A DNA stretch of 64,000 nucleotides from Escherichia coli. GTDB lineage: Bacteria; Pseudomonadota; Gammaproteobacteria; Enterobacterales; Enterobacteriaceae. The stretch lies in the NCBI RefSeq assembly GCF_041886205.1, contig NZ_CP169029.1. One strand, 5' to 3'. The translations under genes and the position numbers were made by a program. This document shows positions 45,929 through 50,516 of the stretch, piece after piece. Positions within the stretch are counted from its first letter, which is position 1; the number at the start of each line of letters is the position of its first letter. The notes under the pieces were generated by a model that saw only the letters and a list, made by a program, of their open reading frames with translations, did not search any database and was not told the DNA's origin.

Positions 45929-47410
45929 CTACACTAACCCCAGGCGCTGAAACTGCTCTGGCGGCGCATCATTGTCTTTCATCAACTGAATCAGCAACGC
46001 GATCATCCGGGCCTCGATCGCATCATCATGAATCGGATGCAGCTGCTGCGGATCGTTTTGCAGATCAAACAGCAAATGACCAAACTGATTCAGCCCCTTA
46101 TATTTCTCCTGTGCCGGGATGCGTAGCACCTTTAACCCTTTGGTGAAACGAAACGGTGGAGCCAGCGATAAAGCCCGCATCTCATCCACCGGATAGCGGC
46201 TGTTCATTTTGCAAGCCATTAAGGTGTAGTTAGCAATATCATCCTCACGCCCCGGCAGCGCGGCACGCATATACACATAACGCCCATCGGTTACGTTGAC
46301 ATGACCACTGAAGACACCAAATATAACCGCACTGCGTACCGGTTCATCGTGGCTGACCGTTTTCGCCAGCGGTTGCCCCTGCACATCGGGCGGCACCGGC
46401 TGCTGAAAAAAGTCATACAACGTAGGTGCCCAGTCGATCATCTGCACCAGCGCCTGACGCCGTTCGCCTTTTACACCGCTGCGCGGATCCCATATAAACA
46501 GCGGGTTATTCGCCACTTCGTTGTAATAAGGCATCTGGTTTTTCGCCCACCAGCCATGCTCACCAAGTAAAAAACCGTGGTCGGTGCCAACAATCAGCAT
46601 GGTGTCTCGCCACAGATCGTGCTCATCCATCAGGTCGAGAATGCGCCCCAGGTTACGATCGCACATCGATACCAGCGAGCGATATCGGCAGCGGATATGC
46701 TCCACGGCCTCGTCGCTTTCCTGAACCCTGCCACGTGGCCAGTCATAATACGGCCCGCTCCAGTCATCCTCATATAACGAAAGGTACTCTTCCGTTGTGT
46801 AAAACGGCTCGTGCGGATCAAACGTTTCGACCTGCAATAACCAGTTATCTTGCGCGTGGTTTTTGTGGATAAATGCACAACCCGCGTCAAAGACTTTGGT
46901 TTGGGGAAAATCCGCTTCCTGCTGAATATATTCCCGGTTGGCCCAGTCATGACGCCACAGGCCAGAAACACCGCCGCCGGTCTGCTTTTGCGGCTCCCGT
47001 AGCACCTCGGGAATAGGCGGTTGCGCAACGCTCGCCTGCCAGTGATCGCCTTCCTGGCCGCGCACAATCTCCCATGAACTGTAGCGATTATGGTAATTTC
47101 CGCCACCATCTTCCCAGTAATGCAAATGATCGCTTATCAGGTGGGTATAGATCCCCGCCTTTGTAAGCAGCTCCGGCATGGAGTCGTCAAACGGTTCTAA
47201 CGGCCCCCACTCCCGGTGCAGAAAATTGCATCGCCCGGTATGCAGCTCCCGTCGGGCGGGCATGCAGGGCATACTCCCGACGTAGCTGTTTTCAAAGGTG
47301 GCGGCATGTGCCGCCAGGCGTTGGAAGTTCTCTGCTTTTGTCAATAAGTCGCCATACGGGGGTAAATATCTTTTGTTCAGGCTATCGAACAGGAGAATAA
47401 TGGCTTTCAT
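45929..47410 (-). CDS. Cys-type (formylglycine) sulfatase, predicted cytoplasmic (accessory)
   Basis: 493-aa ORF; intact sulfatase signature C-x-P-x-R-x4-T-G (CMPARRELHTGR) near residue 48; no N-terminal signal peptide (MKAIILLFDSLNKRYLPPYGD); ATG at 47410. Confidence 0.85.
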   Translation of the reverse strand: MKAIILLFDSLNKRYLPPYGDLLTKAENFQRLAAHAATFENSYVGSMPCMPARRELHTGRCNFLHREWGPLEPFDDSMPELLTKAGIYTHLISDHLHYWEDGGGNYHNRYSSWEIVRGQEGDHWQASVAQPPIPEVLREPQKQTGGGVSGLWRHDWANREYIQQEADFPQTKVFDAGCAFIHKNHAQDNWLLQVETFDPHEPFYTTEEYLSLYEDDWSGPYYDWPRGRVQESDEAVEHIRCRYRSLVSMCDRNLGRILDLMDEHDLWRDTMLIVGTDHGFLLGEHGWWAKNQMPYYNEVANNPLFIWDPRSGVKGERRQALVQMIDWAPTLYDFFQQPVPPDVQGQPLAKTVSHDEPVRSAVIFGVFSGHVNVTDGRYVYMRAALPGREDDIANYTLMACKMNSRYPVDEMRALSLAPPFRFTKGLKVLRIPAQEKYKGLNQFGHLLFDLQNDPQQLHPIHDDAIEARMIALLIQLMKDNDAPPEQFQRLGLV

Positions 47411-47422
47411 TGCTCATCCCTT

Positions 47423-47743
47423 TTATTTGTTTATCAGATAAGGGAAATGCTGTTGGACGACTTCATAAATCTGTGCACCAATCGTTTCACCATCCATAAT
47501 ATTTTCAATCGGGATCAGATATTGCCCGTGTTTCGGGTCCAGACTGACTACGTCGAGTAATTTTTTGGAAATAGCAAAAATATCTGCCCAGTCGGTAAAT
47601 CCTCCCACCTCACCTGCGGCAGTATGTTCCATTTCAACTTTGAACTCATATTTCGTCAGTGCTTTTTTAACGACCGTTTGTAACATCACGCTACTACCGA
47701 CACCATAACCACAGACAAACAGAATATTAATTGTATCTTTCAT
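47423..47743 (-). CDS. PTS EIIB component, ascorbate/galactitol-type (accessory)
   Basis: 106-aa ORF with N-terminal phospho-Cys loop ILFVCGYGVGSS, resembling UlaB-type EIIB; tightly spaced between the EIIC and sulfatase genes. Confidence 0.85.
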   Translation of the reverse strand: MKDTINILFVCGYGVGSSVMLQTVVKKALTKYEFKVEMEHTAAGEVGGFTDWADIFAISKKLLDVVSLDPKHGQYLIPIENIMDGETIGAQIYEVVQQHFPYLINK

Positions 47744-47764
47744 TTTTACATCCTTAATAGTGAA

Positions 47765-49090
47765 TTATCCCGCGTAAGGACCAAGGTGGAATGTTGCAGC
47801 GATAAATTTCAGAACTTCACAAATAGCAGGCCATACAGTTGCCCAGTCAAATATTCCTGTCCAGCCGACGCCATTTTCAGCAAGCCCGGTTAACGGAATA
47901 GCCCACACCGTACCGAAGGTCTGAATAATACCCAGCAAGAAGGTACAGATAATTACGGAGCGGTATCCGCCCATGCGGTTTGCTAAAACGCCAATCGGGC
48001 CGCCTGAGAAAAATAACGGTACAAAGCCTGGCAATACCATAATGGGGCTGTGGATCAGTAATAAGATACCCATCGAGAAAATGGTGCCAAAAGTACAGAA
48101 GACAAAACCTAACGTTGCGGCTTTGGGTGAAAAAGGCAACAGCGCGGCGACATCGACGGCGGGAATGGCATTAGGAATAAAGCGATCCTGCCAGCCTTTA
48201 AAAGAACCGTTAATTTCACCGACCATCATGCGCACGCCCTGCAACAGAATGACCATGTACATGGAGAACTGTAAGCCCAGGTTGATAATATAGATGTACC
48301 AGGGTTTACCTTTTGCCATCATCTGAACGTTATCGATGCCCGTGGAGAGCAGGAACCCGCCAACAAACAGCGTCATCACAATGGCGATAGCCGTCACGTT
48401 GTGGTTAAAAATCGCCAGCCAGCCGGGGAGTTTCAGGTTTTCAGCATCGTGCTTTTCCGGGTCGCCAAATTTATGCGCGAATTTGGAGAAAAACCACAAA
48501 CCCAACATCTGGTTATGGGCAATGGTAAAACCGGCATCTTTGGTCACTTTGGCAATGGGTTTAGCAATGAGCGTGGTGGAAAAAGCCCAGAATATACCCG
48601 TTAATACCCCGGCGATAATAATCGATGTAGTCCAGCTAAATCCTAACCAAAAAACGATTAACCATAATACTGCCTGAGAATGTGACACACCGGTATTACC
48701 GGTCAGGAATATTCCTTTGGCACCGGTATAGCGACCAAACAGCACCAGTAAGAGGTTGGTAAAAAACGCCAGAACAAATACATAACCTACGTAACCAAAA
48801 TTATCCCCCAACGCAATTTGCGTTGCGGCTTTCATGGCGTAGGAATCCATTAAATAACCGTGAACGCCATAGGCTTTACTTACCGCTTCTGCCACCGGTT
48901 TAAAGGTTGCGGAAAACTGAAAACCACCAAATAGCACCATCATTAATCCCACCATGGCACTGACCATACCGGTGATTATTTTGATGGGCGATTTTTTATC
49001 GAGGGCATAACCAATGCCCACCAGCAAACCAATTAATATTGCGGGTTCGGTTAAAAACGTTTGAATAACATCTATGAATTTGGCAAACAT
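47765..49090 (-). CDS. PTS EIIC permease, ascorbate (UlaA/SgaT) family (accessory)
   Basis: ORF track 47765..49108; clear similarity to UlaA (e.g. LQGVRMMVGEI...PGFVPLFFSGGPIGVLANRMGGYRS versus UlaA TQGVRMFVAEL...[25 protein letters not shown]). Start preferred at ATG 49090 (MFAKFIDV), which has a GGAGGG Shine-Dalgarno 10 nt upstream; 49108 is the alternative. Confidence 0.85.
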   Translation of the reverse strand: MFAKFIDVIQTFLTEPAILIGLLVGIGYALDKKSPIKIITGMVSAMVGLMMVLFGGFQFSATFKPVAEAVSKAYGVHGYLMDSYAMKAATQIALGDNFGYVGYVFVLAFFTNLLLVLFGRYTGAKGIFLTGNTGVSHSQAVLWLIVFWLGFSWTTSIIIAGVLTGIFWAFSTTLIAKPIAKVTKDAGFTIAHNQMLGLWFFSKFAHKFGDPEKHDAENLKLPGWLAIFNHNVTAIAIVMTLFVGGFLLSTGIDNVQMMAKGKPWYIYIINLGLQFSMYMVILLQGVRMMVGEINGSFKGWQDRFIPNAIPAVDVAALLPFSPKAATLGFVFCTFGTIFSMGILLLIHSPIMVLPGFVPLFFSGGPIGVLANRMGGYRSVIICTFLLGIIQTFGTVWAIPLTGLAENGVGWTGIFDWATVWPAICEVLKFIAATFHLGPYAG

Positions 49091-49296
49091 CGTCGGAACG
49101 CCCTCCATAAGCGTACATTTCCGTTGTCAATGCATGAACCTTCTGCTGACGTTAATAATGCTTCAGGTATTTTTTATTTTTCGCTAAGCGATGCCTCTGC
49201 TAGTATTCGGTAAACGCACTGTAGTAATCAAAACAGTTCATTTAAAGATCTTATTTGATTATTTGTGATTTGATTTGCAAAAATAGCGCAATATAT

Positions 49297-49338
49297 AACC
49301 GTGATCGATCGGTTAATATTAATCGATCGATCACGGTT
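49297..49338. promoter_or_regulatory. 42-bp near-perfect palindrome between the rlmC stop and the PTS-sulfatase cassette promoter (operator, terminator or insertion-junction candidate)
   Basis: aaccgtgatcgatcggtt-aatatt-aatcgatcgatcacggtt: 18-bp arms with one mismatch around a central AATATT. Confidence 0.4.
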
Positions 49339-49388
49339 ATTATTTGGAATGGATGTATGCCGAAGTGATATTGATTTGAGTGATGTAT

Positions 49389-50516
49389 TTACATTTTTAC
49401 CAGCAGCGTCAGCACTTCATAGTGCGCGGTGTGCGGGAACATATCAAAAAGCTGTACCCGTTCAATACGAAACCCAGGCAGTTCGCGGATATCTTTCGCC
49501 ATAGTTTGGGCGTTACAGCTGGAGTAGATAATAAAACGCGGTGCCATCGTTGAGAGATAATCACACAGCGGTTTACCAATGCCGCGGCGCGGCGGGTTAA
49601 CCAGCACCAGCTCCGGCACCTCCCCCTGAGCGGTGGCAAACTGAGTGGAGTCCAGCGCCTGAAATTGCAAACGCGTTAAGCCCAGTTCAGCGGCTGACTG
49701 CTTTGCACAGGCAATGGCCTCTGGCGCAATTTCGATCCCGGTTAACTGCATGTCAGGCGTCGCGCAGTGTAAACCAAAGCCCCCCACACCGCAGAACAGA
49801 TCCCACATATGTTTAACCGGCAGCTGTCGTACCCAGTCGCGCGCGGTGGCGTACAACTGGCTGGCGACAGCCGGATTAGTCTGGAAGAAACTTTGCGGAC
49901 GGATCCACAGCGGTACGTCATTAAAACGCTCCGCCAGCGACTGTTGTTCGGTCAGGTAGATCTCCGTCTCCCCTTCCATAATCGCCATATGTACCGGCTG
50001 AATATTGACGGTAATAACTTTCAGCTGCGGTAGTTGTTCCTGTAACCACGGCAATGCCTTACGCAGTTGTGCCAGTTTGGTTTCAGAACGCAGTACAAAG
50101 CGCAGCATCATGCCGCCATCGCTCTGGCTTTCAGTCAGCAGAATGTATTTCAGTTCGCCACGCTTACGCGCCACGTTGTAGGGCGTTAACCCCGCTCGGG
50201 CGATAAACGGTTTTAGCGCCGCAAAAACGGGCGCAAATGAGGCAGGATAAAGCGGGCAGTCACAAAGGTCTTCTGGTGTGCCGTCGCGATGCAGCATACC
50301 GAGCAGTGGTTTTTCAACGCTACCACTCACCACCATTTTGGCTTTATTACGAAACCCTTGTTCCGGGCCTGACACCGGCGCGCACCATTCCTCAACCGGA
50401 AAGTCGGCGAGCAGATTTTTAAGATCGGCGGTTTTAGCGGAGAGTTGCTCTGGAATCGGCTGCGTTATCCACTGACAGGAACGACAGCGACCCGCGTCGT
50501 AAAGTGCGCACTGCAT
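49389..50516 (-). CDS. rlmC: 23S rRNA (uracil747-C5)-methyltransferase RlmC
   Basis: 375-aa ORF with N-terminal Cys cluster (CRSCQW) and SAM-dependent MTase motifs ([12 protein letters not shown]). Confidence 0.95.

Follow-up and report, generated by a model that had tools for sequence, protein, structure and literature searches.

Why does a long, nearly perfect palindrome stand between rlmC, an rRNA-methyltransferase gene, and a cassette of PTS and sulfatase genes in Escherichia coli? An earlier note on this DNA had offered three readings of it: an operator for an unlinked regulator, a bidirectional terminator insulating rlmC from the cassette, or a scar or target site of the cassette's insertion. 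We weighed these readings, and others that the sequence itself raised, by analysing the window (the whole 64-kb stretch of DNA under study) and by comparing it with related genomes.

The longest inverted repeat of the window separates rlmC from the PTS-sulfatase cassette

The genes ybjO, rlmC, PTS IIC, PTS IIB and sulfatase lie on the minus strand of the window, and artJ converges on them from the plus strand. The features discussed below are as follows.

49389..50516, minus strand: rlmC, whose transcript would run into the dyad (Pfam, RefSeq annotation)
49341..49388, minus strand: 48-nt spacer, the rlmC 3' UTR, ending in the A-rich AATAATAA (sequence identities)
49295..49340, minus strand: 46-bp dyad, arms 49295-49317 and 49318-49340 (existence, significance, folds, paired changes between Escherichia and Salmonella)
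49277..49294, minus strand: U-rich tail or linker AUAUUGCGCUAUUUUUGC after the hairpin, reading UUAUAUAUU when the last stem bases are included
49264..49279, no strand assigned: CRP-like site TGTGATTTGATTTGCA, TGTGA-N6-TTGCA (letters, within the cross-genus block)
49217..49283, minus strand: conserved promoter block TTTTTGCAAATCAAATCACAAATAATCAAAT...TTTTGATTACTACAGTG, also read TTTTTGCAAATCAAATCACAAATAATCAAAT...TTTTGATTAnTACAGTG (cross-genus conservation)
47765-49108, minus strand: PTS IIC, EIIC-GAT (Pfam, RefSeq annotation)
47423-47743, minus strand: PTS IIB (Pfam, RefSeq annotation)
45929-47410, minus strand: sulfatase (Pfam, RefSeq annotation)
45929..49108, minus strand: whole IIC-IIB-sulfatase cassette, downstream of the dyad (Pfam, RefSeq annotation)

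Read directly from the window, the letters at 49297-49338 are AACCGTGATCGATCGGTT-AATATT-AATCGATCGATCACGGTT. The 42-bp core is thus as originally written, and its true extent is slightly bigger: a repeat finder widens the dyad to 46 bp (49295-49340), with two abutting 23-nt arms that are 96% complementary and differ by a single mismatch, G.T on the plus strand and A.C on the minus strand. In our own scan, this dyad is the longest hairpin-capable inverted repeat of the 64-kb window (23 nt, the runner-up reaching 16), and the longest inverted repeat in 20 block-shuffles of the window was 15. When the arms were searched against the window with up to three mismatches, the only matches were the two arms themselves, with 0.06 expected by chance. 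The placement between the rlmC stop and the cassette promoter region also holds, as the dyad lies 48 nt past the end of rlmC and 186 nt before the start of PTS IIC, on one transcribed strand, with no other hairpin between the rlmC stop and the promoter.

The runner-up is the terminator shared by the convergent artJ and sulfatase genes. There, at 45886-45919, a GC-rich hairpin with 16-bp arms (TTTGCCGGAGTGGG...CCCACTCCGGCAAA) bounds the cassette at its other end as a typical bidirectional terminator.

The cassette itself combines a UlaA/UlaB-like PTS with a sulfatase, and both an EIIA and a regulator of its own are absent. Its substrate may, speculatively, be a sulfated ascorbate-like or sugar-acid compound. 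Lesions at the locus, an IS1 inserted in the IIC gene of ET201 (NZ_CP100994.1) and a frameshift in rlmC of FORC_044 (NZ_CP016755.1), show that it is decaying locally in some strains.

The dyad is a single-copy companion of the cassette

A 52-bp dyad probe matched 566 of the 5,426 complete E. coli genomes, at one locus each (every single locus being reported on both strands, since the probe is palindromic), and none of the rest. The 5' part of the IIC gene was also found in 566 genomes, and the dyad and the cassette co-occurred in 566/566. No copy of the dyad was detected in the approximately 4,860 complete E. coli genomes that are free of the cassette. The earlier note had reasoned that the same palindrome at the rlmC 3' end of cassette-free genomes would point to a native terminator, and many genome-wide copies to a repeat family. 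With exactly one copy per carrier and none elsewhere, the dyad is neither.

K-12 stops being homologous to the window within the last two codons of rlmC, and its rlmC-artJ junction holds REP/BIME sequence plus a different hairpin. REP elements stabilise upstream mRNA and mark operon boundaries. The REP/BIME sequence of K-12 resembles the dyad in being an extragenic palindrome at the rlmC 3' end, but REP elements are GC-rich and come in hundreds of copies, whereas the dyad is AT-rich, single-copy and unrelated in sequence.

The dyad was also searched for outside complete chromosomes. No genuine plasmid copy emerged from a plasmid database, where the two hits fell in E. coli records of 0.7 Mb and 4.9 Mb that look like chromosomal sequence filed as plasmid, and the six hits in a phage database were partial and unrelated. 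A metagenome scan with the pattern TGATCGATCG-N8-14-CGATCGATCA returned at least 120 hits; among the matches listed, the extended dyad occurred only in sequences matching E. coli variants, flanks included, the others being unrelated high-GC palindromes or (GATC)n microsatellites. At a permissive E-value, an Rfam scan gave only generic miRNA-like hairpin matches (13-23 bits, against gathering thresholds of 40-369), and a literature search returned no paper on the dyad sequence or the rlmC-IIC junction. One Logan contig (SRR26525721) stops within the dyad, a sign that short-read assemblies may break at the palindrome. The practical use of these observations is modest: long AT-rich dyads can be expected to interrupt such assemblies, and the element can help to annotate operon boundaries in Salmonella and EHEC.

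The cassette is an old resident of the locus

Other Escherichia species share the gene order rlmC-IIC-IIB-sulfatase-artJ, and so do S. enterica subsp. arizonae, diarizonae and enterica. For subsp. enterica, the RlmC protein probe is indexed in 1,577 blocks of the collection, and IIC follows downstream in each of the contexts read; in LT2, the IIC gene is STM0884, labelled 'ulaA'. In Yokenella, the cassette is again next to artJ, with four extra genes separating it from rlmC. These extra genes (L007, 1977-5690) code for a molybdopterin oxidoreductase, a cytochrome b561 and a two-component system, and resemble MsrPQ and HprRS.

Because the same gene order spans Escherichia and Salmonella, the cassette appears, from these sequence comparisons, to be ancestral and to have been lost from K-12-type and most other E. 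coli. This corrects the picture of the locus, in which the cassette had been taken as inserted, and bears on an operon that occurs in O157:H7 and throughout Salmonella.

An insertion scar, a target site or an element end (att site, transposon end, MITE or integron attC) was suggested by the position of the dyad at the rlmC-side edge of DNA absent from K-12, and its ends do loosely resemble attC core sites, with one mismatch each. However, the cassette occupies one and the same locus in S. arizonae, S. diarizonae, S. enterica and Escherichia species, and Yokenella has it in the same neighbourhood. The dyad is flanked by rlmC and the IIC gene, no integrase or transposase is present, and no target duplication was seen at the two junctions read. 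The dyad is found once per genome, with no genuine plasmid or phage copy, and the metagenome matches listed show its extended form only in E. coli-variant sequences. As the cassette is old and the locus common to several genera, with no mobile-element signature, the scar or target reading falls away, and we regard it as extremely improbable.

Pairing rather than sequence is conserved between Escherichia and Salmonella

Comparison of the window with S. arizonae reveals an uneven pattern of conservation. The arms of the dyad are identical at 31/34 positions (91%) and its apex at approximately 50%. On the rlmC side, the spacer of 48-59 nt is only 56% identical and unalignable (53-56% for Salmonella overall), while on the other side identity is 67% in the cassette 5' UTR, 85% in the promoter block and 83% in the IIC coding DNA. 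Within E. coli, the dyad is at least 95% identical to that of the window in 556 of the 566 carriers, a level that the adjacent IIC coding DNA reaches in only 7. The dyad has evolved under constraint.

At this position, S. enterica subsp. enterica and the related Logan assembly L166 have another dyad, 45 nt long and different in its letters, ATAAATACAATCAATTGATTATTT(A/C)ATTCAATTGGTTGTATTTAT. The layout is the same: the rlmC stop, a spacer ending in AATAATAA, the dyad, 13 nt, and then TTTTTGCAAATC. We aligned the dyads of nine lineages from Escherichia, S. arizonae, S. diarizonae and S. enterica (alignment A2). In this alignment, 97.6% of the cells are paired, and both sides have changed in 7 of the 19 stem pairs. 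The covariation score is 0.345, against 0.174 after shuffling (0/500 shuffles reach 0.345) and at most 0.105 in partner-slid controls. Intermediate states of the stem are mostly G.U, and one pair has gone independently from C-G to U-A in E. whittamii. All nine lineages aligned share the same flanks, A-rich AATAATAA and U-rich TTATATATT. Between the dyad and the promoter block there are no indels across genera, and the apex differs in length by 1 bp between Escherichia and Salmonella. Compensatory substitutions across the Escherichia-Salmonella split thus form an unusually clean record.

The arms of the E. coli dyad contain four GATC sites, as do those of other Escherichia and of S. arizonae; S. 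diarizonae has three, and S. enterica subsp. enterica has none. Since the letters of the S. enterica dyad have changed and its GATC sites are gone while the pairs are kept, it is the pairing that is conserved, and not the sequence or the Dam sites.

This result bears on the idea of a Dam/OxyR switch, in which an OxyR-like factor would compete with Dam at the four GATC sites of two ATCGATCGAT boxes and make expression of the cassette phase-variable, as in agn43, gtr and opvAB. Those systems likewise have, at a promoter or upstream of it, GATC clusters within ATCGATCG-type repeats. The dyad packs its four GATC sites within 30 bp and has two ATCG elements 22 bp apart upstream of a promoter, and ATCGATCGAT also occurs in the OxyR/Dam region of agn43. 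Nevertheless, the dyad matches the OxyR consensus (ATAGnTnnnAnCTAT-N7-repeat) at only 12/20 positions, against 14 for agn43 and 17 for grxA, and 58 positions of the window score 12 or more. Its GATC spacing is unlike that of agn43 and P22 gtr, and the GATC-free dyad of S. enterica, together with the site missing from S. diarizonae, undercuts the idea further, making such a switch very improbable. The best OxyR-consensus match of the window (17/20), which served as a positive control, lies at 58185-58221, 45-80 bp upstream of grxA (58266-58538, plus strand); we take it to be the known OxyR site of grxA, the glutaredoxin 1 gene.

The same paired changes could have a purely mutational origin. A quasi-palindrome with little or no function might have arisen, for example, by slippage of (GATC)n and maintained itself through homogenisation of its arms by hairpin template switching. 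Template-switch correction yields mirror pairs of changes in the absence of RNA selection, which is how the changes arrive here, and the arms do contain tandem GATC units. One such unit (4 bp) has been lost from one arm in about 10 of the 566 carriers (L037 and L038; E. coli SCU-316 and ESDR8), and recombination and assembly breakpoints fall at the dyad. What this explanation leaves unaccounted for is that position, a length of 45-46 nt and the flanks are all maintained across the Escherichia-Salmonella split, next to a 48-59 nt spacer that cannot be aligned, and that the dyad is so much better kept than IIC coding DNA (556 versus 7 of the 566 carriers). On balance we consider such an origin unlikely.

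Recombination may have left other traces around the dyad. The spacer at 49341-49388 exists in Escherichia as two haplotypes that are 67-69% identical, with adjoining DNA at 94-97%. O157-type genomes join one spacer type to the other dyad and UTR type, and L166 is approximately 99% identical to S. arizonae downstream of the dyad and not upstream. Breakpoints seem to cluster at the dyad edges.

The dyad probably forms a long hairpin at the end of the ybjO-rlmC transcript

In the minus-strand, rlmC-sense RNA, the dyad forms a 17-bp stem, followed by the A.C mismatch, two or three further pairs and an AU-rich apex. The Escherichia dyads fold at -26 to -31 kcal/mol (z -5.8 to -8.3) and those of Salmonella at about -20 to -25 kcal/mol. 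Every variant, including the 4-bp deletion, folds stably in the rlmC sense (-20 to -29 kcal/mol, z -6 to -8); in the deletion variant, the hairpin re-registers to a 16-bp stem of -20.8 kcal/mol.

Is this hairpin a terminator? A stable stem-loop just downstream of a gene on the same strand is what a terminator requires, and the dyad has it. Its stem of 17-23 bp exceeds, as had been pointed out, the G+C-rich stem of roughly 5-14 bp of ordinary terminators; it is two to three times as long as usual and AT-rich, above all in S. enterica. G-C pairs number 8/20 in the E. coli stem and about 3 in that of S. enterica. A terminator consensus scan flagged the E. coli dyad on the plus strand only, with the tail TTATTTGG. 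In the rlmC sense, the tail UUAUAUAUU contains 5 U in 8 when the last G-C pair is counted as the end of the stem; past the 20 pairs that the scan assigns to the stem, it stays below the required 5 T in 8. The U-tract is interrupted. The S. enterica dyad was not flagged by the scan, owing to its G-C pairs and loop size. The clues to the acting strand are mixed, with three U.G/G.U sites favouring the sense strand and two A.C sites the antisense. In the dRNA-seq supplement for S. Typhimurium SL1344, ybjO has a primary TSS of its own, indicating that a ybjO-rlmC transcript runs toward the dyad, and no TSS is listed for STM0884.

Known bidirectional Rho-independent terminators share several traits with the dyad: a stem-loop right after a gene, an A-rich run on the 5' side and a U-rich run on the 3' side, so that both strands offer a hairpin and a U-tract, compensatory conservation, and a location at an operon boundary. 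The dyad departs from them in its 17-23 bp stem (other hairpins of the window have arms of 12-16 bp), its AT-richness, its interrupted U-tract, its location between co-directional rather than convergent genes, and the pairing held along the whole helix. It can also be likened to RNase III hairpins (rpsO-pnp, the rnc leader, the T7 early intercistronic sites), which are intercistronic, comprise about two turns of near-perfect dsRNA and conserve the length of the helix and not its sequence. RNase III substrates need about 20 bp or more of near-continuous dsRNA, which the dyad provides, with 17 plus two or three pairs and four flank pairs in Escherichia and a continuous stem of 18 bp in S. enterica. 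RNase III sites usually carry internal loops and proximal and distal boxes; the likeness of the dyad is one of helix and position.

An intrinsic terminator requires only about 8 bp of stem. Compensation along the whole 17-bp stem exceeds this need, and leaves room for RNase III processing, for a 3'-stabiliser role or for template-switch homogenisation.

From the structure, compensatory conservation, position and genome distribution observed, we infer termination and the acting strand. The dyad would act as a nucleic-acid hairpin rather than as a sequence-specific protein site. Transcribed 48 nt past the rlmC stop, it would fold into a stem of 17-22 bp, and the A-rich run upstream and UUAUAUAUU downstream would give it the layout of a bidirectional-type intrinsic terminator. 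Such a hairpin would end or strongly attenuate transcription of rlmC some 70 nt short of the cassette promoter's -35 region, and so keep housekeeping read-through out of the PTS IIC-IIB-sulfatase operon. With about two helical turns, it could also serve as a 3'-end stabiliser or a site of RNase III processing.

Among the three readings first proposed, insulation by a terminator is the best supported, by the compensation within the stem, the invariant flanks, the absence of any other hairpin after the rlmC stop, and the pattern of genomic contexts described below. We give an even chance to the reading in which the ybjO-rlmC transcript closes with this RNA hairpin, which would serve as terminator or insulator and might double as a 3' stabiliser or RNase III site. 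It is best filed as a lineage-specific terminator/insulator hairpin of unusual length. If this is right, the locus offers a clear natural case of an insulating hairpin that shields a regulated accessory sugar-sulfate uptake operon from the transcript of an rRNA methyltransferase.

The dyad follows the upstream gene and not the promoter block

Downstream of the dyad, the promoter block is kept in Escherichia, Salmonella, Silvania, Leclercia and Yokenella. From its conserved TAnnGT pattern, we infer a -10 element TACAGT at 49223-49218 and a TSS near 49211. The CRP-like sequence mentioned in the earlier note is indeed present at 49264-49279; relative to the putative TSS, it would be centred at about -60.5 and the dyad at about -106.5. 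The block also contains three AATCAAA repeats. K-12 has this heptamer too, both ahead of ulaR and between ulaG and ulaA, a hint that UlaR may control the cassette promoter. Judged by these motifs, the promoter looks to be under activator plus repressor control. The overall likeness between the cassette intergenic region and the K-12 ulaG-ulaA region was no better than that of shuffled sequences (40/200 reach the score). The real control region of the cassette is this conserved block just downstream of the dyad, with its CRP-like site and Ula-like repeats.

The dyad does not accompany the block everywhere. It is present where rlmC reads directly into the promoter block, in Escherichia and Salmonella. 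In Silvania and Leclercia, the upstream gene is divergent and encodes an arylsulfotransferase, and no comparable inverted repeat was found. Two candidate relics of the dyad in these genera, TAATAATCATG..GTTATATAT in Silvania and a TCGA-rich stretch in Leclercia, were not significant and form no inverted repeat. Yokenella is also without the dyad; the co-directional histidine-kinase gene upstream of its cassette ends in a hairpin of its own, TTGCCGC-TGTAA-GGCGGCAA, and rlmC in a separate GC-rich hairpin. This pattern of presence and absence, drawn from a handful of contexts, fits a boundary element and not an operator that belongs to the promoter.

The comparison across genera weakens, without removing, the proposal of an operator for an unlinked regulator. 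Here the dyad, near -106.5, would be a distal site for a symmetric oligomeric protein, such as a tetramer of the DeoR/UlaR type that contacts proximal sites in the promoter block by looping. The cassette has UlaA/UlaB-like parts and AATCAAA repeats as in the ula regulon, where UlaR has been reported to bind four operators as a tetramer (PMC3219644), and a multi-operator tetramer would fit a distal site. Each arm contains a sub-palindrome of 10-12 bp, ATCGATCGAT in E. coli and AATCAATTGATT in S. enterica, that outlasts the change in sequence; the spacing between dyad and block is constant, free of indels across genera; AATCAAT in the S. enterica arms comes close to the AATCAAA found in the promoter block and in the ulaR and ulaG-ulaA regions of K-12; and the Bacillus cassette adjoins a DeoR regulator with repeats such as GATCAATTCGA. 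Against these points, 7 of the 17 half-site positions differ in S. enterica, always with a mirror change, and the outer stem covaries, which a short core half-site would not need. The apex is 1 bp off between Escherichia and Salmonella, and the dyad is missing from three genera, Silvania, Leclercia and Yokenella, that keep the block. The E. coli dyad reads AATCGA and not AATCAA, the ula likeness stays at the level of shuffles, and no regulator is linked to the cassette in Enterobacteria. We judge a distal operator unlikely.

A related possibility is that the dyad is a DNA element read by its structure upstream of the Ula-like promoter, either as a supercoiling-dependent cruciform or as a distal operator of a tetrameric DeoR/UlaR-type repressor, with arms that co-evolve; the four Dam sites, gained in Escherichia, would then make expression of the operon heterogeneous or epigenetically switchable. 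We hold this to be quite improbable.

In the L011/L012 comparisons, cassettes of other bacteria are accompanied by the partners that the E. coli one lacks. That of Bacillus sp. SD088 adjoins the DeoR regulator, an EIIA and a UlaG-like protein of the metallo-beta-lactamase fold (a hydrolase), and that of Neobacillus adjoins a PRD regulator, an EIIA and an FGE-type sulfatase maturase.
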